NCBI GenBank assembly: GCA_964496095.1
Contig: CAZBWU010000002.1
Coordinates: 15,595 to 79,594, forward strand
Source of the DNA: an uncultured Gammaproteobacteria bacterium
GTDB taxonomy: Bacteria; Patescibacteriota; Patescibacteriia; Magasanikbacterales; GWA2-37-8
Reading direction: 5' to 3'
DNA: 64,000 bases
Shown: positions 1 to 58,495 of the stretch, one piece after another
Position numbering within the stretch: position 1 is the stretch's first letter
Layout of the letters: each line of letters opens with the position of its first letter
Translations under genes and position numbers: made by a program
The notes under the pieces: generated by a model
The model's input: only the letters and a program-made list of their open reading frames with translations
Told to the model about the DNA's origin: nothing
The model's database searches: none

Positions 1-977
1 CAAGCAAACGGTAACAGCCCGAGCCAAGCTAAAAATAACGATCGTCTATTATCGCAACCAAAGGCGCAACCAATTTCAAATAATAATAGTGGAAATACCA
101 GGGACCACAAAATCGGTAAAAACCATTTGGTAATAGTTAATAAATCTGTCTTAAAAACTTTTGCCAAAATAACATTACTTGACCAAAAATTACCATACGA
201 CAATTGACCAACTACAGATTTTAAATTTAATATTTCAGAATTAGGATTATCATAAATAATTGGTCCTACGATCTTAGCTTCCAAAAATTGTTTGCCATCT
301 AACAGTCTTTGTTCATTCGCAATATGTCGCCAACCATCTGCTCCATAAATTAAATCATGCGTAAGCGGTAAATAACTATGTAATAAAAAAGTTTGCAAAA
401 TCAAAAAGAGAATAATAATTGGGGTTTTTAATTTTGACCAAATTAACACTCCTAGTGTAAGCGTAGATAAAAAGAAAATAAAAATGTATTGTGGATTGAT
501 AACTTGCCATGGAGTTAAAATTGCATTTCCTGTACGCGAACTATAAAGCAAATAAAATCCATAACAAACTAAAATTAAAAAGGCTACGGATGCAAACCTG
601 ACTTTTAGTTTATCATTCTGAATGAAATGAAGAATCTTTCTGTCTTCAAGCTCTGTATCGGAAAGATCCCTCGTCCCCCGCTCTTCGCGAAGGGCGGGGT
701 CGCTCGGGATGACAGTTGACGCTATAATTCTTTTTGCCCACCTGGACAATAAGAAAAAAATCAATGCATTCAAAACAAAAATCCCAGCTAAAACCCAAAA
801 AGTTAAAGGCAAAAATAAAATAGCTACTCCAGCTACCCATCCCAAACTAAGAAAACTCGCAAATACTCCCAATATTCTACCATTAAAATTATTATCCAAA
901 CCAAACACTCTGACCAAGACGGCAGATACCCAATTTCCAACAATCAACAAGTAAACTGCAAAGAAAATAAACAACAT
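1..977 (-). CDS. Polytopic integral membrane protein, 3' end truncated by the window edge (possible GT-C-like glycosyltransferase; family not established); ATG at 975-977
   Basis: Manual translation of the minus strand gives an uninterrupted frame from ATG (975-977, preceded in frame by a TAG stop) to position 1. The product is strongly hydrophobic with many predicted TM segments (MLFIFFAVYLLIVGNW...). The frame runs straight through the palindromic repeat at 611-714. Not listed in the ORF track, presumably because it is partial. Confidence 0.5.
   Translation of the reverse strand, partial: MLFIFFAVYLLIVGNWVSAVLVRVFGLDNNFNGRILGVFASFLSLGWVAGVAILFLPLTFWVLAGIFVLNALIFFLLSRWAKRIIASTVIPSDPALREERGTRDLSDTELEDRKILHFIQNDKLKVRFASVAFLILVCYGFYLLYSSRTGNAILTPWQVINPQYIFIFFLSTLTLGVLIWSKLKTPIIILFLILQTFLLHSYLPLTHDLIYGADGWRHIANEQRLLDGKQFLEAKIVGPIIYDNPNSEILNLKSVVGQLSYGNFWSSNVILAKVFKTDLLTITKWFLPILWSLVFPLLLFEIGCAFGCDNRRSLFLAWLGLLPFA
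611..714. repeat. Nested-palindromic MITE/REP-like element copy E1, located inside the membrane-protein CDS and in-frame
   Basis: Termini tcattctgaatg ... cgctcgggatgaca. Internal palindromes gaaagatccctcgtc / gcgaagggcggggtcgc. Same family as the copies at 2590, 13644, 15154, 19461, 31986, 40575, 54453, 56500 and 58396. Confidence 0.7.
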
Positions 978-2589: not shown

Positions 2590-2684
2590 TGTCATTCTGA
2601 GCAAAGCGAAGAATCTTTCCGTTAGCAAAACTTTTTCTCGGAAAGATCCCTCGTCGACCTAAAAAGGCCTCGCTCGGGATGACA
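2590..2684. repeat. MITE/REP-like palindromic element copy E2, starting 8 nt after the dnaB stop
   Basis: tgtcattctgagcaaagcgaagaatc ... ggaaagatccctcgtcgacc ... cgctcgggatgaca; the termini are inverted repeats. Confidence 0.75.
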
Positions 2685-4413: not shown

Positions 4414-4488
4414 ATAATGAATTATGAAGACGAATTAAGAATAATGATAATAGTGTGCGTAGTATATGCTAAAGATTAATTTTTGTCA

Positions 4489-4544
4489 ACCCTGTTAAAT
4501 GCCCCTTTGGGGCAAACCCGATATATTCGGGTTATTTAACAGGG
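4489..4544. promoter_or_regulatory. Perfect 12-bp inverted repeat enclosing two hairpins, in the rplU 5' region (candidate r-protein leader structure or solitary MITE)
   Basis: ACCCTGTTAAAT-[GCCCCTTTGGGGC]-[AAACCCGATATATTCGGGTT]-ATTTAACAGGGT, flanked by the direct repeat GTCAACCC. Lies between the DUF192 gene stop and the rplU start on the transcribed (minus) strand. Confidence 0.4.
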
Positions 4545-4581
4545 TCAACCCAAAGATACTCCCAAAACCAGCTTAAAATAC

Positions 4582-6072: not shown

Positions 6073-8868
6073 CTATTCTACCGACATCATCCCTCCAGCT
6101 CCAACCGTCACCGTACTACCCCTTCTCAGTTTACCTTGCAATAACAATTCTGCCAATTTGTTTTCTACTTTCTCCTGTAAAGCCCTACGCATAGGTCTGG
6201 CACCAAACTCGGCATCAAAACCAACATCAACCAAAAATTCTAAGGCTTCATCGGTCGCTACCAAAGTCACGCCTTTTTCTTCAATATTTTTGGCAAGCTT
6301 CAAAAACATTTGGTTGGCGATTTTTTTGATACCATCTCTGTCCAAATCATTAAATAAAACAATACCATCAAACCGGTTCAAAAATTCCGGACGATAATAT
6401 TGTTTGAGTTCACCGTGAAGAAGTTGATTGAGAACTTTTTCATGCGGAACGCCATTTCGGTTTTGCTCTTGCACAAAGGCTGTGCCGGCATTGGAAGTAG
6501 CAATGATAATGACATTGGTGAAATCATAGACATGACCCGTACTGTCGCTCAACCGGCCATCATCCATAACTTGCAAAAATAAATTCAAAATATCAGGATC
6601 AGCTTTTTCCATTTCATCCAAGAGTACGAGTGAAAATGGATTCTGACGTATAGCTTCGGTCAGCACCCCGCTCGCCTTTTCTCCTGGCATACCAATAAGC
6701 CGATAAATACTAGACTTGTCTTGGTATTCACTCATATCTAGGCGAATCATACGATCTTCTCCGCCAAAATAAATATCAGCGATAGTTTTGGCAAGTTCGG
6801 TTTTACCTACACCAGTTGGACCCAAAAATAAAAAGCTAGCAATTGGCCGTTTGCCCGAACGAATCTCGGCTCTCGCTCTACGCAAGGCATTGGCTACGGC
6901 ACTCACGCCTTCTTCTTGACCAATCACGCGCTTGCGCATTTCTTCTTCTAGGTGCATTAATTTTTCTGATTCATTACTAGATATTGCCGACAAAGGAATC
7001 TTTGTTTTTTCGGTAATAACAGTGGCCACTTCTTCTTTAGTCACTAGAGAATTAGCGCCTTTGGTATTATGAGTAAGGCTCGCAGCTTCGGTAATAATCT
7101 CCAGCGCATTGCCAGGCAAAACTGTTTCATGCAAAAATTTCATGGAAAATTCTACCGCTTTTTCTATAGCCGAGTAAGAGAAAAAAACATTTTGTTTATA
7201 CTCCAAAGAACCAACTCTTGATTCCAAAACTTGAATAGCCTGATCTTCGTTCATCTCGGCAATATTTACTTTGGTAAAGACATCTTTGAGCGAAGAATTT
7301 GAAAAACGTCCGGCATAATCTTCGGTAGTAGTGGTAGCAATAGTAAGCACCTTATCACTACGCAAAAATTCAGCGATAGTATCGGCCATATCAAGACTAC
7401 CACTCTCACCGACCGACACACCCACAAGCTCATGCAAATTATTGATAAATAAAATCACATTTCGCGCTCGAGAAATCTCTTGCATGATAGATTGCAATCT
7501 CTCCACCGCTCCCTCGGGGCTTGTGCCGGCGAGCAAAGCCGAACTGCTAAGCCTAATCAATCTTTTATCTTTAAGTTTACTTGGCACATCTCCAGAGATC
7601 ATACTTTGAGCAATTCCCTCTACAATCGTTTTTTTACCCACCCCATGCTCGCCTACCAAAATCACATTATTTTGGCCACCATCAATTACTTGGAAAATCT
7701 GATCTATCTCAGCGGTACGAGCCACACATTCTTCTAGTTGGCCAAAATGAGCCATCATCGTAATATCAGAACTAAAACTATTTAAGTACGGTGTCGCTAG
7801 AGCAGTCATCGCTTTATCCATGCCATACTTGGAATGATGACTGATAGCCTTTTGCATTTTGAGGTACTCATGATGAAAACGTTCACGCATTCTCGCCCAC
7901 TCAATCACATTAGTCAGCTGTCTTTCGGAAATATCAAAATCAAACAACATGTCTTGCAAAGCAGGAGTTTCTCGCAATACTACAATCAATAACTCAGTCA
8001 CACTCACATAATCCTGCCGAGCCAAACAGGCTTCTTCGTAGGCTTGGAAAATTATTTGGTGAATATCTTTAGATACTATTGGCGACACACCATCATAAGC
8101 TTTTTGCTTATCAACCATTGGGAAAATATGCTCTAATTCTTTTTGCAAAGAACTAGCCGGAATTCCAAGTCTAATAAAAATATTGGAAATTCTATTAAAT
8201 GACAATAGTGTATAAAATATATGTTCAGGTTTTAATTCTTTGACTCTCATTTTATCAGCCAAACCATAGCTCTTAGCTAGAGCTGTCAAAGCTTCTTCAG
8301 TAAAAGCATTGGCAATATTAAATTTTTTTCTGCCAGAAAATTTTTTCGCTTGTGCCCAAGAATCTACAACCGCATCTGCCTTTTTCTCTTTATGTTGATA
8401 ATCATGTTTGAATGTTTCCATTTTACCCACAGATTCTTTCTTACGGATAATTTGATACCAAAGATATAGGATTGATAAGACACCTAACCAAAATAAAAAT
8501 TCTGCCCAATTATTTATTCCCTTAAAAAACAAAGACCATTGTTTCGGATCTGCTAATAAAGCAAACTTATCTTGCTTGAAAATAATAAACCCAGCCCAAA
8601 TCCAAGCGTTGAGCCAAAAGACAAAAGTTGTCACCATTCTTACGCGTTTCAAAATTCTACGCGCTTTTTGCAAAGCCAGATTATATTTGGTGAGCGAAAA
8701 ATCCCAATACAACCATAACCCACGCCTAGACATACCAAAAGCCATACTTTGACACTCTTTACATTTTCGGAGTTTGACAAAGCCTGTGCCTTGGCAGGTT
8801 TCACAAAAAAGTAATTTTAATGATTCTGATTTTTTAAATTGCTGCATATATAAGTCCGTAAAAAACAA
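6073..8868 (-). CDS. ClpC/ClpB-family double-AAA+ unfoldase with an N-terminal zinc ribbon and two TM helices
   Basis: Two AAA modules (Walker A GEHGVGKKT and GPTGVGKT; D2 Walker B LLDEME; sensor SRLIGMPGE), Clp_N-like repeats and a short middle region. The N-terminus carries CETCQ...CKECQ followed by two hydrophobic helices. The D1 Walker B reads FINNLH rather than FIDE(I/L)H. Confidence 0.85.
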   Translation of the reverse strand: MFFTDLYMQQFKKSESLKLLFCETCQGTGFVKLRKCKECQSMAFGMSRRGLWLYWDFSLTKYNLALQKARRILKRVRMVTTFVFWLNAWIWAGFIIFKQDKFALLADPKQWSLFFKGINNWAEFLFWLGVLSILYLWYQIIRKKESVGKMETFKHDYQHKEKKADAVVDSWAQAKKFSGRKKFNIANAFTEEALTALAKSYGLADKMRVKELKPEHIFYTLLSFNRISNIFIRLGIPASSLQKELEHIFPMVDKQKAYDGVSPIVSKDIHQIIFQAYEEACLARQDYVSVTELLIVVLRETPALQDMLFDFDISERQLTNVIEWARMRERFHHEYLKMQKAISHHSKYGMDKAMTALATPYLNSFSSDITMMAHFGQLEECVARTAEIDQIFQVIDGGQNNVILVGEHGVGKKTIVEGIAQSMISGDVPSKLKDKRLIRLSSSALLAGTSPEGAVERLQSIMQEISRARNVILFINNLHELVGVSVGESGSLDMADTIAEFLRSDKVLTIATTTTEDYAGRFSNSSLKDVFTKVNIAEMNEDQAIQVLESRVGSLEYKQNVFFSYSAIEKAVEFSMKFLHETVLPGNALEIITEAASLTHNTKGANSLVTKEEVATVITEKTKIPLSAISSNESEKLMHLEEEMRKRVIGQEEGVSAVANALRRARAEIRSGKRPIASFLFLGPTGVGKTELAKTIADIYFGGEDRMIRLDMSEYQDKSSIYRLIGMPGEKASGVLTEAIRQNPFSLVLLDEMEKADPDILNLFLQVMDDGRLSDSTGHVYDFTNVIIIATSNAGTAFVQEQNRNGVPHEKVLNQLLHGELKQYYRPEFLNRFDGIVLFNDLDRDGIKKIANQMFLKLAKNIEEKGVTLVATDEALEFLVDVGFDAEFGARPMRRALQEKVENKLAELLLQGKLRRGSTVTVGAGGMMSVE

Positions 8869-9187: not shown

Positions 9188-9302
9188 AATAGTTTTTATT
9201 ATACCATAAAAATGAAATTGTGCCGACTTTATTTATCCAAAGCTTGACGCAGTAATCCATCTATGTTAAATAAACTTCCAGGCCTAAAGGAGGGCCACTA
9301 CT

Positions 9303-9722
9303 ATGACGACTCATGACTGGAGAAAGCGCACGTCGGAGGGCGAGAAGCAACGACTGATCGGCAGGGCGTGGGGGTCGGTGGTGGGCACCTACCTCTGGTA
9401 CGAGATCGGGGAACGCGATCAGATCGTTCGCGAGCGGCCGAACATCATCGCCAACTGCTTCACCGATCACGTGGTGGTGCCCGGTGACATCGAGTGTCAC
9501 CGCAGCAAGTACCTCGCGGGCAACCCATGGCTCCTGCGACTGCGCGGCGGCAATCTCATCTTGCACCCCTCGCTGATCTGGGGGGGAGCAAGGCGCTACT
9601 GCCCGCTCTACCAGATCGGGCACGTGGTCGAGAGCAAGTGCGTGGACGACTGCCTCAACTTCTGGCAACGGATGGACGTCAACGCTCGCGCCGGCGGGCA
9701 CAGCCACAGCGACGACATCTGA
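9303..9722 (+). CDS. Hypothetical protein encoded in a GC-rich island (foreign-looking cassette)
   Basis: 139-aa ORF preceded by a strong SD (aaaggaggg, 7 nt from the ATG). The local GC content is far above the flanking DNA, the amino-acid composition is protein-like (W, Y, C, H rich), and a terminator follows. No recognised domain. Confidence 0.45.
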   Translation: MTTHDWRKRTSEGEKQRLIGRAWGSVVGTYLWYEIGERDQIVRERPNIIANCFTDHVVVPGDIECHRSKYLAGNPWLLRLRGGNLILHPSLIWGGARRYCPLYQIGHVVESKCVDDCLNFWQRMDVNARAGGHSHSDDI

Positions 9723-9866
9723 TCATGCCCTTCGGGGCCAGATCCGCGAGCGGCTCGGGCGCACCATACGACCCGACCACCGCTCAGATCCCAGACCCGA
9801 GCCGTTCACGCAATCTAATAATTAATTTGTTAAATTGCGCGAGCTCGGATCTGTATATAATTTAAA

Positions 9867-9897
9867 AACCCCGCCTTTCACGAAAGGCGGGGTTTTT
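9867..9897. terminator. Bidirectional rho-independent terminator between the GC island and ftsL
   Basis: aaaaaccccgcctttcacgaaaggcggggttttt: a perfect GC stem with A/T runs on both sides. Confidence 0.65.
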
Positions 9898-9918
9898 AGT
9901 ATATTTTTTTATTCAAAC

Positions 9919-13643: not shown

Positions 13644-13719
13644 TGTCATCCTGAATGAAATGAAGGATCTCTGTCTCAATCACCGCCGGACAGAGATTCT
13701 TCGCAAGCTCAGAATGACA
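13644..13719. repeat. MITE/REP-like palindromic element copy E3, 15 nt upstream of the RNase J-like start
   Basis: tgtcatcctgaatgaaatgaaggatctctgtc ... ccggacagagattcttcgcaagctcagaatgaca. An open reading frame is retained through it. Confidence 0.75.
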
Positions 13720-13821: not shown

Positions 13822-13850
13822 GGCTGGGTCGAGGAACGGTCGACCCAGCC
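13822..13850 (-). terminator. Hairpin (11-bp perfect stem) downstream of the Cys-rich island gene
   Basis: GGCTGGGTCGA-ggaacgg-TCGACCCAGCC. The downstream tract is only weakly T-rich. Confidence 0.3.
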
Positions 13851-13946
13851 ACGTGGCATGATGGTCTACCGTTCCTAGGTGGTCAGGCTAATAGCCCGAC
13901 CGTTGTTGGCGGTGGCTCAGCCACCCGTCGGCACGCCCCTTGCGGG

Positions 13947-14309
13947 CTAGCCGTGCTTGCAGGCGCAGCCGTTGCCCTTGTCGTCGCAGCCCGTCCAGTG
14001 CAGGCAGAAGGGCACGCAGGTGAAGCCCTGAGCCTCGACCTGCGCACAGCAGTCCGTGTCACCCCCGACACCGCACTCCATGCAGATCGCCGCCCAGAGG
14101 TTGTCACCGCAGTCGATGACGTACACTCCGCGAGCCGCGGCTTCCGGGGTGGAGTTGTCCTCCTCCGTGCAGGCCGCGCCGGTGCAGGACGAGTCGTTGT
14201 CGTTGATGCGGGTGACGAGGGTCACACCGTCATCGGTGGGGACGTCCTCCGTACAACCACCGACGGTGAGGGTGGCGAGGACCGCGAGCAAAGTGGTGAA
14301 GGTACGCAT
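13947..14309 (-). CDS. Secreted (probable lipo)protein, cysteine-rich, encoded in a GC-rich island
   Basis: 120 aa with signal peptide MRTFTTLLAVLATLTVGGC and about 18 Cys in the mature part (CxxC, CC and CxC motifs). SD aggag about 10 nt upstream. The local GC is far above the genome background. Confidence 0.5.
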   Translation of the reverse strand: MRTFTTLLAVLATLTVGGCTEDVPTDDGVTLVTRINDNDSSCTGAACTEEDNSTPEAAARGVYVIDCGDNLWAAICMECGVGGDTDCCAQVEAQGFTCVPFCLHWTGCDDKGNGCACKHG

Positions 14310-14473
14310 TTTTGAAACTGACTCCTGTCAAGAAAACGCCTTCGAGGAAACCTTTCCTCGGTTAGACCCCAACACCTTGCCCTATTTTCCCCTTTTTGTC
14401 AAGGGTTTTATCCCCATTTTTATATGTTTTTTGAGATGTTCAAAAACAAATTTTTCTGCTACAATAATGCAAT

Positions 14474-15153: not shown

Positions 15154-15299
15154 TGTCATCCCGAGCGAAGCCGCTCCTGCGGCTGACGAGGGATCTAAAC
15201 ATTAATTTTAATTTAATGAATAGATTCCTCACACCTAAAGGGGGTTCGGAATGACAACGACCAACCGGACAGAGATTCTTCACTCCGTTCAGAATGACA
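15154..15299. repeat. Composite MITE/REP-like elements E4 (full unit plus half unit) between the stop of the previous gene and murJ
   Basis: tgtcatcccgagcgaagccgctcctgcggctgacgagggatct ... ggttcggaatgaca, followed by accaaccggacagagattcttcactccgttcagaatgaca. Confidence 0.75.
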
Positions 15300-19460: not shown

Positions 19461-19538
19461 TGTCATTCTGAGCAAAGCGAATAATCCCTGTCCAACGAAA
19501 CAACCGGACAGAGATCCTTCACTGCGTTCAGGATGACA
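19461..19538. repeat. MITE/REP-like palindromic element copy E5, ending 5 nt before an ATG
   Basis: tgtcattctgagcaaagcgaataatccctgtcc ... ggacagagatccttcactgcgttcaggatgaca. The terminal AGGA may serve as an SD surrogate. Confidence 0.75.
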
Positions 19539-22699: not shown

Positions 22700-22821
22700 A
22701 ACTAACTTGAAATAAATTTATAATGATTTTTGCAGCGGCAATCACCAACCCCTTCAGGGGTGGTCGTCCGCCTAAGCGAACGACCACTTTGCCACAAGAA
22801 AATTATTATAAATTTATAATT

Positions 22822-31985: not shown

Positions 31986-32071
31986 TGTCATCCCGAGCGA
32001 AGCCGCTTTTGCGGCTGACGAGGGATCTATACTTTAATGAATAGATTCCTCACACAAGGTTCGGAATGACA
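31986..32071. repeat. MITE/REP-like palindromic element copy E6, between the rplI stop and the pyrG start
   Basis: tgtcatcccgagcgaagccgcttttgcggctgacgagggatct ... ggttcggaatgaca. Confidence 0.75.
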
Positions 32072-40574: not shown

Positions 40575-40750
40575 TGTCATTCTGAATCCCCTCAAGGGGA
40601 TAAACCCCATAAAGAATCCCTGTCTAAACAATGTCATTCCCGCAAAAAGCGGGAATCCAGACAATTCAATTGAACGCTGGATCCCCGATCAAGTCGGGGA
40701 TGACAACGAACAAACCGGACAGAGATCCTTCGCTGTCACTCAGGATGACA
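40575..40750. repeat. Tandem cluster of three or more MITE/REP-like palindromic units (E7) between the dnaJ stop and the ECF sigma start
   Basis: tgtcattctgaatcccctcaaggggataaacccc..., then tgtcattcccgcaaaaagcgggaatccagacaa, then ...gatccccgatcaagtcggggatgacaacgaacaaaccggacagagatccttcgctgtcactcaggatgaca. Confidence 0.7.
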
Positions 40751-53105: not shown

Positions 53106-54231
53106 GTATTTTATTCACTAACCAGTCTTTCAATCGACGATGCCAGCCAATTTTATTATTTAGACCCAACTCTGACAGAGGCACTGCTTCTTTTTTTAAT
53201 TCATCAAAAATTTTATTAAGGTCTTCTACCATTTTTTTATCTGAAAAAACTACGCCCGCTTCATGATTAATATAAAAACTACGCGGAGTGAGATTGGCGC
53301 TACCAACCATACCAAGCTTGCCATCCACTGTCACCGCCTTACCATGATTCATTTTTCTCAAAAAATAAAAAACCGCTCCCGCTTTAGCGGAAATACTAAA
53401 AAACATAGAAGCCATATAACGCATCAGGCGCTCATCTGTTCGCCATGGCGTGATAATATTTATTTTTACTCCTCGGGCATGTGCCTTGGCTATCAAATCC
53501 AAAAAACTCTTATCAGGCACATAGTAGGGTGTCAATAAATTAAAGCTTTCTTTAGCAGTACTAAGCGCATCTTTATAAAATTTCTTAAATGGCGACTTGC
53601 GAGTTGACCCTAAAGGTGAATGCAAAATTAGTTTTATTTTCTCCTTAAAGCTACTAATTTTAGCAACCAACTTTGGCCTTAGTAAATCTTGCACATCTCT
53701 TTTATCGCCTCCAGCTCGCACATAAGCTCTGCCAAAGGCAAACAAAATAGGCACCACTGTTTTGCCAGTCAAACGTAAATGTAAATCATGCCAACTGGCT
53801 GAGTCTTGGGCCACATTGACACCACCGATAAACAGTATATCTTTATCAATAATTAAAACTTTGCGATGAGTACGATGCCAAACTCGACGCCACCAACCAT
53901 ATATAGAAAAACCCGGACGAAGATGATTAAAAATCAAAAGCTTAATTCCCGCATTTCGCATTTGAGCAATAGCTTCTTTGGATAAATCATAACTACCAAA
54001 GCCATCCACAATAATTTTAACATCTAATCCTGTCTGCGCTTTGGCGCACAACAAATCTATAAAAGGCTTACCGGCCTCGTCATCTACAAACATAAAAATC
54101 TCCCAATAGATTGAGCTTTTGGCCTCCAAAATAGCCTGTCGCATTCCTGCCCAAGCCAAAACAGTGCTATTGTAAAATTTATAGCTAAAAGACATATACT
54201 TAAATATACTCTGCCCAAGAAGAAATATCAA
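53092..54231 (-). CDS. Phospholipase D family protein (cardiolipin synthase-like, two HKD motifs)
   Basis: HRKVLIIDKDILFIGGVN and HGKAVTVDGKLGMVGSANLTPRS; 379 aa. Confidence 0.75.
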   Translation of the reverse strand: MIFLLGQSIFKYMSFSYKFYNSTVLAWAGMRQAILEAKSSIYWEIFMFVDDEAGKPFIDLLCAKAQTGLDVKIIVDGFGSYDLSKEAIAQMRNAGIKLLIFNHLRPGFSIYGWWRRVWHRTHRKVLIIDKDILFIGGVNVAQDSASWHDLHLRLTGKTVVPILFAFGRAYVRAGGDKRDVQDLLRPKLVAKISSFKEKIKLILHSPLGSTRKSPFKKFYKDALSTAKESFNLLTPYYVPDKSFLDLIAKAHARGVKINIITPWRTDERLMRYMASMFFSISAKAGAVFYFLRKMNHGKAVTVDGKLGMVGSANLTPRSFYINHEAGVVFSDKKMVEDLNKIFDELKKEAVPLSELGLNNKIGWHRRLKDWLVNKIRDYV

Positions 54232-55271
54232 CCCAAATTATGCAGAAAATCCATCACTATTTTTTCCACATCATCGGCGGTTTTTGCGCCTTCCATCAGC
54301 CTAACCCGAAGTTCTTTAGCTCCGTCAAATCCATTGACATAAGCCTTATAATGTTTTTTCATGATATCAAAATTTTTATAGTCTCCCAGGACTTTTTCAA
54401 ACAAATGTGTATGCTCTACCATCACCATAAGTTTCTCCTCAACACTCGGCGTTGTCATCCTGAACGGAGTGAAGGATCCCTTAAACTCAGACGATAGGGA
54501 TTCTTCATTTCTCTCAGAATGACAACCGGAAAAAAGCCAGGGATTACCGAAAATCCCTCGACCAATCATCACGCCGTCTGCGCCGGTTTGTTTTACTCTT
54601 TCTTCAGCCTCGGATAAATTTTTGACATCACCATTCCCTAAAATCAAAGTCCTACTTTCTGAACTATCATATTTATTTCTAATCTCAACAGCATCTTTGA
54701 CAGTTTCCCAATTGGCAGGAACTTTGGACATCTCTTTGCGCGTACGAGCGTGCACAGTAATTGCAGCTGGTTCAGTTTCCAACAAGTACGGCAACCACTC
54801 AGACAAAGTATTTTTGTTATAACCGATTCTAGTTTTGACTGACACTGGCAAATTACCCGCTCCACGTTTAGTTTCTTTGATAATCTCTTGAGCTAACAAT
54901 GGGTGCTTTATCAGGCACGCTCCCCCGCCCTGTTTTTCTACATTTCTGTCAGGACAGCCCATATTAATATCAATTCCATCAAAACCAAGTTCTTGAATGA
55001 GCAATGCTGTTTTATAAAAATTCTCAGGATTGGAACCAAAAATCTGCGCCACAATTGGACGCTCTGCTTCGCTATACATAAAATCTATCAGAAGTTTGTC
55101 TCGGCCAGCTGAGACCAACCCATCACAAGCTACAAATTCGGTCCACATGACGTCTGGTTTACCGTATTTGGCAATTACACGTCGAAAAGCAGCGTCCGTG
55201 ACATTAGCCATCGGCGCCAAAACAAAAATTGGCTTTTTTAGTTTTTGCCAAAAGCCTGTGTGCATATGCAT
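54228..55271 (-). CDS. dus: tRNA-dihydrouridine synthase (Dus family) carrying an in-frame 24-aa insertion derived from a palindromic repeat
   Basis: TIM-barrel Dus motifs (LAPMANVTD, catalytic Cys region NMGCP, GADGVMIGRGIFGNPWLF). The segment SGCHSERNEESLSSEFKGSFTPFRMTTP is encoded by repeat E8 (54453-54524). Confidence 0.85.
   Translation of the reverse strand: MHMHTGFWQKLKKPIFVLAPMANVTDAAFRRVIAKYGKPDVMWTEFVACDGLVSAGRDKLLIDFMYSEAERPIVAQIFGSNPENFYKTALLIQELGFDGIDINMGCPDRNVEKQGGGACLIKHPLLAQEIIKETKRGAGNLPVSVKTRIGYNKNTLSEWLPYLLETEPAAITVHARTRKEMSKVPANWETVKDAVEIRNKYDSSESRTLILGNGDVKNLSEAEERVKQTGADGVMIGRGIFGNPWLFSGCHSERNEESLSSEFKGSFTPFRMTTPSVEEKLMVMVEHTHLFEKVLGDYKNFDIMKKHYKAYVNGFDGAKELRVRLMEGAKTADDVEKIVMDFLHNLG
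54453..54524. repeat. MITE/REP-like palindromic element copy E8, lying within the dus coding sequence (72 bp, in-frame)
   Basis: tgtcatcctgaacggagtgaaggatccc ... gggattcttcatttctctcagaatgaca. Confidence 0.8.
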
Positions 55272-56351: not shown

Positions 56352-56423
56352 TAGCCCCAACGGGAATCGCACCCGTCTTTCGACCTTGAGAAGGTCACGT
56401 CCTAACTGATAGACGATGGGGCC
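56352..56423 (-). tRNA. tRNA-Glu (anticodon CUC)
   Basis: Manual cloverleaf: acceptor GGCCCCA/TGGGGCT (G1-U71 wobble), U8, D-stem GTCT/GGAC, anticodon stem TGACC/GGTCG, loop TTCTCAA (anticodon CTC, A37), T-stem ACGGG/CCCGT, discriminator A. The 5' sequence GGCCCCATCGTCTA is typical of tRNA-Glu. Confidence 0.75.
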
Positions 56424-56499: not shown

Positions 56500-56553
56500 A
56501 GTGTAAGGGATTCCTCCACTCAGTCGCAAAAGCTCCTTCGGTCGGAATGACAA
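56500..56553. repeat. Partial (right-half) MITE/REP-like element E9, between the typA stop and tRNA-Glu
   Basis: ggattcctccactcagtcgcaaaagctccttcggtcggaatgaca. Confidence 0.5.
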
Positions 56554-58395: not shown

Positions 58396-58495
58396 TGTCA
58401 TCTTGAGCGAAGTCGAAAGATCCCTTATACTAAGCTATTTAAAATTCTTGGTTTAAGGGATTCCTACACTACGGTCGGAATGACAAGTACATTGC
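58396..58495. repeat. MITE/REP-like palindromic element copy E10, 20 nt upstream of the typA start
   Basis: tgtcatcttgagcgaagtcgaaagatccc ... gggattcctacactacggtcggaatgaca. Confidence 0.75.

Follow-up and report, generated by a model that had tools for sequence, protein, structure and literature searches.

A palindromic repeat read in frame within the tRNA-dihydrouridine synthase gene of a CPR bacterium, and its GIY-YIG-bearing relatives

The Rickettsia palindromic elements (RPEs) are short dispersed palindromes, some of which lie in frame in housekeeping genes and are translated (Ogata et al. 2000, as cited in PMC10969869). In-frame intragenic copies have also been described for the bacterial MITEs ERIC, BOX and QMITE1 and for the MITEs of Anabaena (PMC10969869). 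Here we describe a family of palindromic repeats from Patescibacteria/CPR with a copy in the reading frame of dus, the gene for tRNA-dihydrouridine synthase. The window that was analysed is the whole 64-kb stretch of DNA in which this gene lies. Going by the names of its orthologues, the host belongs to Candidatus Magasanikbacteria.

The first-pass annotation had likened the repeat in dus to the RPEs, and the comparison is apt as far as behaviour is concerned, but no further. In both cases a dispersed palindrome has a copy in the frame of a housekeeping gene at a site compatible with the fold, and both are non-autonomous. The families differ in host (Patescibacteria/CPR instead of Rickettsia), in length (56-104 bp compared to about 100-150 bp for RPEs) and in the share of intragenic copies, which is 1 of about 11 in the window but nearly half in some RPE families. 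The family described here also has REP-like hairpin arms and, in its longer relatives, a GIY-YIG ORF. To our knowledge no GIY-YIG-type partner of RPEs is known.

The REP/REPIN system (RAYT, Y1 HUH) is similar in its short imperfect hairpin with a flanking tetranucleotide, in the inverted doublet as the mobile form and in copies that are abundant, overwhelmingly intergenic and without target-site duplication. However, the tetranucleotide is TGTC and not GTAG, a 95-aa GIY-YIG protein is encoded between the units whereas RAYT is flanked by REPs, and no RAYT turned up among the window ORFs scanned. Moreover the dus copy is intragenic and apparently translated, which REPs by definition are not. With MITEs the family shares short ORF-less multi-copy forms, terminal inverted repeats as in a longer ORF-bearing element and the occasional in-frame fusion with host ORFs, but it shows no target-site duplication and the ORF of its long form is neither DDE nor any other recognised transposase. 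Free-standing GIY-YIG homing genes of the Seg and I-TevI type and UPF0213 have in common with it PF01541, a patchy distribution and co-conversion-like flanks. Here, in contrast, the protein has about 95 aa, lacks a DNA-binding domain and is framed by hairpin arms, and ORF-less derivatives far outnumber the nuclease-bearing form. In-frame palindromic repeats of CPR were not found described in the literature searched, an absence that is no proof of novelty, and the searchable literature yielded no description of this repeat family or of palindromes that enclose a GIY-YIG gene.

The dus protein of the window reads ...GNPWLF SG CHSERNEESLSSEFKGSFTPFRMT TPSVEEKL..., where GNPWLF represents residues 242-247. 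ORF and coordinates agree with the original description of a 72-bp repeat in frame that contributes 24 residues after this motif. Nor is the gene disrupted: Pfam recognised PF01207 (Dus; E = 3.2e-62, 210.9 bits, cut-off 20.4) over residues 18-342, corresponding to profile positions 2-306 of 311, and the protein keeps 90 of the 90 invariant columns of the Dus alignment, including NMGCP, K146, H174 and R176. The AlphaFold model (pLDDT 90.6, pTM 0.89) shows a TIM barrel and a C-terminal helical domain, and its Foldseek matches were 1vhn, 3b0u, 4yco and 6ei9 with TM scores of 0.78-0.86. Between E233-236 and H277-295 of this model the 24 residues have a pLDDT of 47-56 and no secondary structure. 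The insert is thus modelled as a low-confidence, disordered loop that connects the TIM barrel to the helical domain, in line with the first-pass annotation, which regarded this linker as a plausibly permissive site. A disordered surface loop at this position predicts that the enzyme should still work. We infer translation of the insert from the conservation of the frame, full-length protein predictions being an ascertained sample.

The possibility that the 24 residues are a native Dus loop was rejected. They are encoded by one of about 11 copies of a dispersed family in the window (Table 1), and the earlier view of the insert as a palindromic repeat foreign to Dus is upheld. Ten of these copies are intergenic and the dus copy is the sole intragenic one; related CPR loci contributed another 6 copies, none of them clearly intragenic. 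The 27-nt arm, at up to 3 mismatches, had 3 matches in the window and none in 100 shuffles. Short members lack an ORF and have the termini TGTCATYCYGA and TCRGRATGACA; some high-GC copies merely carry the palindrome on into their flanks. The palindrome of the dus copy reaches from 54451 to 54526, with 31-nt arms (81% complementary) and a 14-nt loop. Folded as RNA the element gave -36.4 kcal/mol (z = -4.0), and in a 90-nt folding scan it ranked within about the top 15 stretches of the window by stability, half of this group being copies of the family.

Neither a target-site duplication nor a shared target motif was detected at 10 window copies. A Pfam scan of about 60 window ORFs revealed no transposase, RAYT or recombinase, and tblastn with the GIY-YIG protein found no such gene in the 64 kb, all window copies being without ORF. 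Rfam gave no family at gathering score and, at permissive thresholds, only miRNA-precursor-like hairpin noise (E > 0.1). A protein-database search with three concatenated insert peptides returned no matches.

Table 1. Repeat copies, arms and host gene in the 64-kb window
Position	Strand	Feature	Basis
611-715		Intergenic copy; left terminus TATCAT, right-arm hairpin expanded	
2590-2684		Intergenic copy 3' of dnaB	
13644-13719		Not intragenic; copy directly 5' of an MBL/beta-CASP gene whose true start is MKLSFFGAAG	
15154-15256		Complete copy	
15257-15299		Right half of a second copy, abutting the preceding one	
19461-19538		Intergenic copy; subtype as in dus copy	
31986-32071		Intergenic copy between pyrG and rplI	
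40575-40750		Outer copy of nested pair	
40632-40705		'C-type' copy in the loop of the outer copy	
54228..55271	minus	dus (tRNA-dihydrouridine synthase) gene, 347 aa, intact	ORF and translation, Pfam, AlphaFold
54453-54524	plus-strand coordinates	72-bp imperfect palindrome TGTCAT...ATGACA in dus; 24 in-frame codons CHSERNEESLSSEFKGSFTPFRMT	
54453..54478	plus	dus-copy arm TGTC-ATCCT-GA-AC-GGA-GT-GA-AGGAT-C; 5-bp stem and mini-hairpin intact	Arm census, covariation
54499..54524	minus (mRNA-sense)	dus-copy arm TGTC-ATTCT-GA-GA-GAA-AT-GA-AGAAT-C; 5-bp stem intact, inner mini-hairpin degenerate	
56509-56552	minus	Lone arm between tRNA gene and bipA	Arm census
58396-58485		Intergenic copy upstream of bipA	

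A short member is composed of two arm units in inverted orientation around a variable spacer. The arm unit is REP-like and has the structure 5'-TGTC-[5-bp stem]-GA-[2-bp stem + GNA-type triloop]-GA-[5-bp stem]-C, where TGTC was set by the search pattern for arms and its conservation is thus no independent result. The 5-bp stem is perfect in 208 of 231 arms and occurs in at least six covarying versions. Paired arm positions amount to 81.5% compared to 64% in shuffles (0 of 500), the covariation score is 0.409 compared to 0.175 (again 0 of 500), and all 7 of 7 pairs vary on both sides. What the family conserves is the single-arm hairpin, neither the long hairpin nor a peptide. Two of the three reading frames of the arm consensus are stop-free; the dus copy is read in the TGT-CAT...ATG-ACA frame. 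An asymmetry in folding between the strands was considered as a sign of RNA function and discarded, being inconsistent among copies. The family is not confined to genomes of this type: the same arms were found in contigs with a GC content of 46-64%.

Relatives that have these arms but are longer encode a GIY-YIG nuclease and no recognised transposase. In 5 of 5 loci (L042, L249, L263, L271 and L277), three of which had been picked by the protein alone, an ORF of about 95 aa is located exactly between the left and the right arm, where it replaces the spacer. Because of this arrangement the short palindromes look like ORF-less derivatives of the GIY-YIG unit. Arm-encoded N- or C-terminal extensions are present in 27 of 120 GIY-YIG homologues, and the L042 contig starts with a second, partial copy of the unit. 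GIY-YIG-bearing copies occupy unrelated intergenic sites (cobS/cobD, tldD/pmbA and ATPase/dnaB). The protein possesses the PF01541 catalytic domain, has a weak sequence match to UPF0213 structures (PDB 1zg2 and 1ywl) and lacks a DNA-binding domain for a long target. GIY-YIG proteins that occurred on several contigs were at first sight candidates for multi-copy genes but represented the same locus in several samples. A search of viral contigs by protein gave one GIY-YIG locus, apparently the L249 gene (100% match).

The pairing of arms and GIY-YIG gene extends beyond CPR bacteria into Acidobacteriota, Chloroflexota and Ignavibacteriota. These relatives suggest how the repeat family spreads, with the nuclease as the most likely mobilising or homing enzyme, but an ORF between arms is equally compatible with a GIY-YIG gene homing into pre-existing palindromes. 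Tentatively, the short palindromes, the dus copy among them, might be seen as the non-autonomous majority of an undescribed, phylum-spanning group of mobile elements. The complete form would then measure about 350-480 bp and encode, between two REP-like arms, a 95-aa GIY-YIG nuclease that recognises the arm hairpins. Essential genes would be colonised without splicing because two of the three frames of the arms lack stop codons, and the elements would land in, or home to, the dus linker time and again. We regard this proposal as possible rather than probable.

CH...MT inserts two residues past GNPW[LF]F were found in 16 of 119 other orthologues (Magasanikbacteria), at the same codon and in the same frame. 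The resulting 17 alleles comprise at least three interior subtypes at this shared site, and 17 of 17 inserts are stop-free with lengths that are multiples of three. In P0009, P0023 and P0025 (83-88% DNA identity), for example, elements of 72, 84 and 87 bp, all of different subtypes, are located exactly between GCC GGC and CCN. The C-type insert corresponds to the nested copy of the window, joined to 17 nt that remain as the tail of an older element. The linker itself has natural lengths of 9, 11, 13 and about 20 residues, and inserts of many kinds, many of them strongly folding, reside in it in 37 of 115 CPR Dus genes sampled.

A clean 24-residue indel had been anticipated at the repeat boundaries. 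Against the closest orthologues, P0002 and P0003 (94% and 92% identical to the window Dus outside the linker), this expectation failed: they have a different linker of 13 residues, with DRFVDVDSMPIK in place of the SG, the 24 residues and the TPSVE of the window, a net difference of 19 aa in which both flanks are changed as well. The insert comes close to a clean indel only in comparison with P0039 (AGK followed by TPTIEE), a less common allele with a short linker. On the Dus tree the presence of inserts required 13 parsimony changes over 17 taxa (bootstraps 10-14; shuffled labels 16). As judged from these sequences, insert-bearing alleles are polyphyletic and scattered over the tree, and the insert is not a private insertion of the window genome.

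The sister pairs window/P0002, P0004/P0011 and P0009/P0035 show a sharply bounded exchange of the entire linker, which in the last pair is bordered by about 100 nt without a mismatch; most of the orthologue DNA stems from metagenome assemblies, in which chimeric contigs are possible. Segmental recombination among dus alleles is directly visible in the mosaic make-up of the window gene and P0121, where 210 identical nucleotides lie beside stretches of about 10% divergence. Between these two the element differs at 5 of 72 positions, 3 of the 5 differences being non-synonymous, and the adjoining tract at 7 of 435. A second indel of Dus, located after AKY[GS]K and not a repeat, served as a recombination control and, from lineage to lineage, varies together with about 30 nt of its flank. 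This insertion was itself considered as another palindromic element, but it folds weakly, is confined to dus and is not dispersed.

We consider it probable that the insert in dus is one of the ORF-less members of the family, a translated and largely neutral passenger whose allele was spread by segmental recombination. The copy would be tolerated because its length is a multiple of three, because two of three frames of the arm consensus are stop-free and because the site is a naturally length-variable linker between TIM barrel and helical domain. It would be translated as a hydrophilic, disordered surface loop of 24 residues and would be a passenger and not an adaptation; in comparison with the closest relative it changes about four times as fast as the coding DNA beside it, by mostly amino-acid-changing substitutions. 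Rather than a fresh insertion in the window genome, it would be part of a class of occupied short-linker alleles with the pattern xG/xN, element, (T)P[ST][VI]EE. This class may owe its patchy distribution in Magasanikbacteria lineages to segmental homologous recombination, and its interior may be turned over as further family members land in the resident copy or replace it. Homologous recombination at 75-88% allele identity should be inefficient, and it is uncomfortable to attribute 10 or more state changes solely to neutral recombination. This leaves room for an active, site-directed process.

Such a process could be a homing-like invasion, in which the dus linker beside the conserved GGNAAYCCNTGG (GNPW) is a specific target that is hit repeatedly and independently. 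A few flanking codons would be co-converted, possibly after GIY-YIG cleavage, and the element would persist in this essential gene through translation and not through splicing. GIY-YIG is the catalytic type of many homing endonucleases (I-TevI, Seg) and is encoded by members of the family, and homing sites typically adjoin the most conserved motif of a gene, as the insertion site in dus does. Seventeen alleles, among them at least three unrelated interiors, have the insert at the identical nucleotide and in the same frame, in agreement with homing. The same is true for the near-random distribution over the Dus tree, for the perfect identity around the swapped linker of P0009/P0035 and for the flanking residues xG/xN and P[ST][VI]EE, which move with the insert and displace the 13-residue linker of the lineage. 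Nevertheless we think homing to dus unlikely. The dus copies carry no nuclease gene, and those copies that do sit at unrelated intergenic sites, so no specificity for dus is evident. The 95-aa protein has no domain for binding a long DNA target and the other window copies have no target motif in common. Moreover, the control indel is just as polyphyletic and shows the same co-variation with its flank, which indicates that ordinary segmental recombination suffices.

An exapted function appears more improbable still. The mRNA hairpin (-29 to -38 kcal/mol) at the domain boundary might slow ribosomes or control mRNA processing, or the loop might aid tRNA binding. The position of the insert exactly between two folding units would fit this idea, as would the varied, often strongly folding occupants of the linker in CPR Dus genes and the retention of the hairpin in P0121 despite 5 substitutions. 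Those substitutions are, however, not compensatory, and the peptide evolves rapidly with non-synonymous changes. Furthermore, the closest relatives lack the insert, folding is more stable for the antisense strand (-34.2) than for the mRNA strand (-29.0), and it is the hairpin of the single arm that the family conserves.

It is very improbable that the insert is missing from the mature product, be it through removal at the mRNA level, ribosomal bypassing or excision from the protein. Yeast mitochondria do have palindromic insertions within genes that ribosomes bypass, and a related Dus (L044) has an in-frame TGA within a 56-codon insert at the same site, with its flanks in register. On the other hand, removal would make it needless for all CH...MT inserts to be stop-free and a multiple of three in length, Rfam showed no match to an intron or ribozyme, and matching take-off and landing codons are absent around the element. 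An intein was dismissed because 24 residues are too few, and a self-splicing group I or II intron for want of an Rfam match at gathering score. Although repeats can be mis-assembled in metagenomes, an assembly error or a decaying gene is hardly credible, since the junctions, as the first-pass annotation had asked to see, are identical in an independent assembly from another run (Logan assembly of SRR10036080, L165; 100% identity over 3123 bp spanning the element), the same protein occurs on 4 contigs, a relative that is 94% identical and comes from a different sample has this insert with 5 substitutions, and the ORF is intact with all family-invariant residues.

Selfish palindromes in frame in essential genes have so far been mainly a Rickettsia curiosity. 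Their occurrence in CPR bacteria, where one site has been filled by different family members in many orthologues, shows it to be a broader phenomenon and provides a natural experiment on protein positions that accept 20-60 extra residues. The repeats also inflate and fragment protein predictions from metagenomes, through spurious CHSE.../VILS.../...SLRSE peptides, extended ORFs and short contigs, and annotation pipelines would benefit from recognising them. If the link to GIY-YIG proteins is causal, the arm hairpin and the nuclease would represent a new mode of DNA mobility in a minimal form that can be tested directly.

The dus gene is an open reading frame of 347 codons on the minus strand of the window (54228-55271), the translation of which matched the Dus domain PF01207 over residues 18-342 (Pfam, E = 3.2e-62). 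After GNPWLF the protein continues as SG-CHSERNEESLSSEFKGSFTPFRMT-TPSVEEKL. The insert consists of 24 codons, TGT CAT through ATG ACA (54453-54524 in plus-strand coordinates), and its DNA is an imperfect palindrome with arms of 31 nt (54451-54481 and 54496-54526; 81% complementary) separated by a 14-nt loop. The RNA fold had an energy of -36.4 kcal/mol (z = -4.0 versus shuffles). A 27-nt arm of this copy found two further matches in the window at no more than three mismatches, against none in 100 shuffles. The ORF, the fold and the dispersed copies thus confirm the first-pass annotation, which had proposed a palindromic repeat read in frame within dus and adding 24 residues. A pseudogene was rejected because the Pfam match is intact and all 90 columns invariant among 67 aligned orthologues are retained. 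An assembly artefact was rejected as well: the junctions were checked in the independent Logan assembly of run SRR10036080, which is 100% identical to the window across 3123 bp including the element, and the same insert with five substitutions is present in P0121, a 94%-identical relative (contig L260) from another run. Four contigs on record encode exactly this protein.

An AlphaFold model built from an orthologue alignment (pLDDT 90.6, pTM 0.89) superposed on solved Dus structures across both domains (target-normalised TM 0.78-0.86). Its sole internal stretch of low confidence is the insert, with pLDDT values of 56 and 47 for the ten-residue blocks of 251-270, and it shows no secondary structure from strand 233-236 to helix 277-295. 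The expected loop between the domains is therefore borne out by the model, as a disordered one. The nearest solved relative by sequence, 1vhn, has a linker of its own (19 residues) at the same place. Because of this and of the low confidence of the insert, the insertion site is, as modelled, a naturally variable inter-domain linker. The insert would be translated as a disordered, functionally neutral loop.

Copies in the window were located by the termini TGTCATYCYGA and TCRGRATGACA followed by inspection of folds, which gave about 11 family members in 64 kb. The dus copy is the sole intragenic one, the rest being intergenic; that at 13644-13719 lies within a mechanically listed ORF, yet upstream of the real start of the MBL/beta-CASP gene. 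Nested, truncated and solitary forms are listed in the table; no partner was found for the lone arm. Direct reading of the consensus shows that the left arm is open in the frames TGT-CAT-TCT-GAG... and GTC-ATT-CTG-AGC... and the right arm in ...ATG-ACA and ...AAT-GAC, the third frame meeting TGA in both arms. Since two of the three frames are open, an element whose length is a multiple of three is readable at its ends with two chances in three. The window also contains two strong palindromes unrelated to the family (-37 and -34.5 kcal/mol), located at 4480-4554 between rplU and a DUF192 gene and at 22721-22810 in a gap between listed ORFs. Two GC-rich islands (9300-9900 and 13850-14310; 61-69% GC against a background of 38.7%) are among its strongest-folding stretches; the ORFs of either strand had no Pfam match and Rfam gave nothing above noise, and the islands could be unannotated structured RNA or foreign DNA. 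A Clp/AAA+ chaperone ORF of 931 aa (6073-8868) has Pfam domains beginning at about residue 380, its N-terminal 380 residues having no Pfam match.

Coordinates of repeat elements, GIY-YIG units and the control indel (L, DNA loci; P, homologous proteins)
Feature	Sequence	Position	Details
Copy nested inside another	window	40575-40750	
Copy abutting a truncated copy	window	15154-15299	
Lone arm, hairpin with expanded loop	window	56509-56552	between a tRNA gene (56352-56423) and bipA
GIY-YIG unit	L042	916-1263	left arm 916-942 (TGTCATCCCGACCGTAGTGGAGGGATC); right arm to 1263 (GATCCCTCGACTTCGCTCGGGATGACA)
GIY-YIG unit	L249	10730-11229	ORF between left and right arm, a perfect 30-nt inverted repeat; extra arm inside
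GIY-YIG unit	L263	944-1325	61% GC; between cobS and cobD
GIY-YIG unit	L271	940-1405	63% GC; between two tldD/pmbA genes
GIY-YIG unit	L277	951-1318	42% GC; between a P-type ATPase gene and dnaB
Tandem ends	L042	88-279	
Tandem ends	L207	12012-12070	
Tandem ends	L185	261-330	
Tandem ends	L263	~920-943	
Tandem ends	L271	~919-939	
Element in stop-free frame	L250	2842-2935	
Element in stop-free frame	L202	535-664	
Control indel	P0121 (L260)	556-630	
Control indel	P0130 (L261)	1371-1445	
Control indel	P0023 (L166)	926-1000	
Control indel	P0051, P0055, P0056, P0097		

Each arm is composed of TGTC, a 5-bp stem, GA, a 2-bp stem with a GNA-type triloop, GA, the second half of the 5-bp stem and C, the commonest inner mini-hairpin being GCGAAGC. 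With a loose pattern the outer stem was perfectly complementary in 208 of 231 arms, although it exists in at least six versions (ATTCT/AGAAT 105, ATCCT/AGGAT 58, ATTCC/GGAAT 24, ATCCC/GGGAT 8, ATGCT/AGCAT 5 and ACCCT/AGGGT 5). The inner stem covaries as well (GC..GC with AC..GT). In a second set, collected under looser constraints and comprising 57 different 26-mers (chance expectation about 12), 81.5% of cells were paired, compared to 64% after shuffling (reached in 0 of 500) and 25-45% with slid partners, and both sides changed in all seven stem pairs. The two arms of one element, the dus copy included, often carry different stem versions (e.g. T/A versus C/G). Such mixtures weaken the long hairpin but leave each arm hairpin perfect, which argues that the arm is the conserved object. 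In this respect the family resembles REP/REPIN sequences, its arms being built as REP units paired in doublets. No target-site duplication was seen at 10 window copies, and Rfam holds no model for the repeat. At element ends the outermost 17-24 nt (TGTCATYCTG.. or ..TCGGGATGACA and a few further bases) often form tandem arrays of two to six units, also beside copies bearing the GIY-YIG gene described below; these repeats may be the footprint of a cutting or joining mechanism.

A degenerate 26-nt arm pattern hit 91 stretches in IMG/VR contigs with a median GC content of 57%, and these elements plainly belong to the same family. The repeat is therefore not a speciality of the candidate phyla radiation (CPR). 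At high-GC viral-contig loci, two complete elements out of 40 fall in frames that are free of stops and extend for 40 or more codons to either side, and one reads CHSERSEES...QND; they are possible further in-frame copies outside CPR.

By the names on the closest homologues and loci, the host of the window is Candidatus Magasanikbacteria (Patescibacteria/CPR). Most of the 120 best homologues of its Dus protein possess a 13-residue linker of the type NRKVDYAKIPLAE and a few a short one, such as AGK-TPTIEE or RG-ITPTITE. An insert that starts with CH two residues after GNPW[LF]F, and in nearly all cases ends with MT, is carried by seventeen, counting the window protein. These orthologues were gathered as full-length predicted proteins, a procedure that frame-shifted occupied alleles would escape, and the comparative DNA came almost entirely from metagenome assemblies. 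A clean 24-residue indel relative to the closest orthologues, as had been predicted, was not found: P0002 and P0003 are 94% and 92% identical to the window protein outside the linker and have DRFVDVDSMPIK and NRSVDAETMPIK in place of SG+24+TPSVE. Collinearity of the window with a relative ends at GGTAATCCNTGG on one side and at GAGAAACT on the other, and everything between differs. Equally sharp swaps divide P0004 from its sister P0011 and P0009 from P0035, the latter two with identical flanks of about 100 nt on the left and 50 nt on the right in genes that are 86% identical overall. A near-pure insertion is apparent only against the empty short-linker allele, where P0039 has GCC GGC AAA ACA CCG ACG ATT GAA GAA and P0009 has GCC GGC [TGTCAT...ATG] ACA CCG ACA ATT GAA GAA. 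In a sample of 115 CPR Dus genes (L001-L164, with some duplicates) the linker measured 18-67 residues rather than 9-13 in 37, and in many of these its DNA folds strongly and derives from other lineage-specific repeats (e.g. L045/L056, L138 and L147). In L044 (DAIDBF010000077, 10742-10930) this linker is interrupted by an insert of 56 codons that includes a TGA in frame, with both flanks in register; TGA is otherwise a stop in this genome, and a split gene, read-through or ribosomal bypassing are candidate explanations.

The same codon is occupied by different members of the family. P0009, P0023 and P0025 (83-88% DNA identity) have elements of 72, 84 and 87 bp whose position and frame are identical. 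The shortest belongs to the window subtype, and the 84-bp element matches the insert of the distant P0004 (L001) almost exactly. The 87-bp element consists of the C-type copy that is nested at 40632-40705 of the window and of a 17-nt tail, GTTGTGTCGTGATGACA, which resembles the right terminus of an earlier resident element. On a neighbour-joining Dus tree (292 columns, linker excluded) the 17 insert-bearing sequences required 13 parsimony changes (10-14 in 50 bootstraps) versus a mean of 16 for shuffled labels. The clade-specific 13-residue linkers agree with the tree whereas the occupied linkers do not. The latter have common flanks (xG or xN before, [PSV][STGN][VI][EA][EK] after) which resemble the empty short allele and not the linkers of sister sequences. 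In one clade (P0051, P0057, P0058, P0060, P0066 and P0074) every linker is either short or occupied, and this allele class may be native there.

Homologous exchange could underlie this distribution. P0121 is a mosaic relative to the window gene, with 100% identity in about 210 nt before the element, about 98-99% at the 3' end and about 88-90% in the 5' half. A second indel, used as a control, comprises 22-23 residues after AKY[GS]K (..FGGQDIGDGSKESLPVRSDSEGG..) and is absent from the window gene. It was rejected as a dispersed palindromic repeat, being neither dispersed nor strongly folding, and is likewise polyphyletic. P0121 and P0130, from different lineages, share with it the same upstream flank of about 30 nt (GCGGCTTTTCGGCGGATAATAGCAAAATAC), which insert-free sisters lack. 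The mosaic and the shared flank show that dus segments have been exchanged homologously among Magasanikbacteria lineages, and such exchange suffices in principle for the patchy distribution of occupied linkers. We suggest that occupation of the linker began in a short-linker allele, as a single event or a few, and was disseminated through segmental recombination. Family members inserting into or beside the resident copy would later have replaced its interior, a turnover suggested by the C-type tail and by two pairs in the window, one nested and one with a truncated member. The main rival, a homing-like process directed at the conserved sequence that encodes GNPW, would account for the improbable number of state changes and for the flanks travelling with the insert, but it presupposes a dus-specific cleavage for which no evidence emerged, and we consider it unlikely. 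Once in place, the dus insert looks like a neutral passenger: in the tract recently shared by the window and P0121 there are 5 differences among the 72 positions of the element and 7 among 435 of the surrounding coding DNA, and three of the five substitutions change amino acids, none is compensatory and all are in one arm or the loop.

A screen of ORFs bracketed by arms revealed a GIY-YIG gene, first met in L249. A homologue in L042 (Candidatus Uhrbacteria, also CPR) lies exactly between two arms, and the final 55 nt of the unit recur where this contig starts, so that at least two copies are present there. L263, L271 and L277 were selected by protein alone and their DNA fetched afterwards; each ORF has a left arm immediately before its ATG and a right arm downstream of it. 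Thus an ORF of about 95 aa is framed by arms in five of five loci, from CPR to 63%-GC genomes, and the unit often separates genes that belong to a single pathway (cobS/cobD, tldD/pmbA). The protein family comprises more than 7600 homologues at E < 1e-10, all PF01541, on records whose names include Uhrbacteria, Paceibacterota, Melioribacteraceae, Thermoanaerobaculia, Binatales, Chloroflexi and Omnitrophica. It has no NCBIfam model or curated name, and its only structure matches, weak ones, were to UPF0213. Extensions translated from arms (e.g. ...DSSLRSE*, ...DPSLRSG*, ...RDSLGMT, ...ARNDR, MSFRGSARNLT... and MSFPRKRESR...) were present in 27 of the best 120 homologues; the association comprises these and the five loci. 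The simplest reading is that arm-ORF-arm would be the complete element and the short palindromes ORF-less derivatives, related to it as MITEs are to insertion sequences. Alternatively, the gene may home into the loops of pre-existing palindromes. In our reading the nuclease would move the elements by acting on arm hairpins. Within the window, neither a GIY-YIG gene nor any kind of transposase is present.

In-frame palindromic repeats are established for Rickettsia palindromic elements (RPEs), with sporadic reports for ERIC, BOX, QMITE1 and cyanobacterial MITEs (PMC10969869). A literature search, with most subscription journals outside its reach, gave no account of the recurrent site, the arm hairpin or the GIY-YIG link. 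The present family differs from all those systems in that one codon of one essential gene is repeatedly occupied by different members, and in the REP-like hairpin of the single arm, which contains a mini-hairpin of the GCGAAGC type; it is, moreover, associated with a minimal GIY-YIG nuclease rather than with a RAYT or DDE transposase. The dus insert adds a new phylum to those in which palindromic repeats are known to be read in frame.
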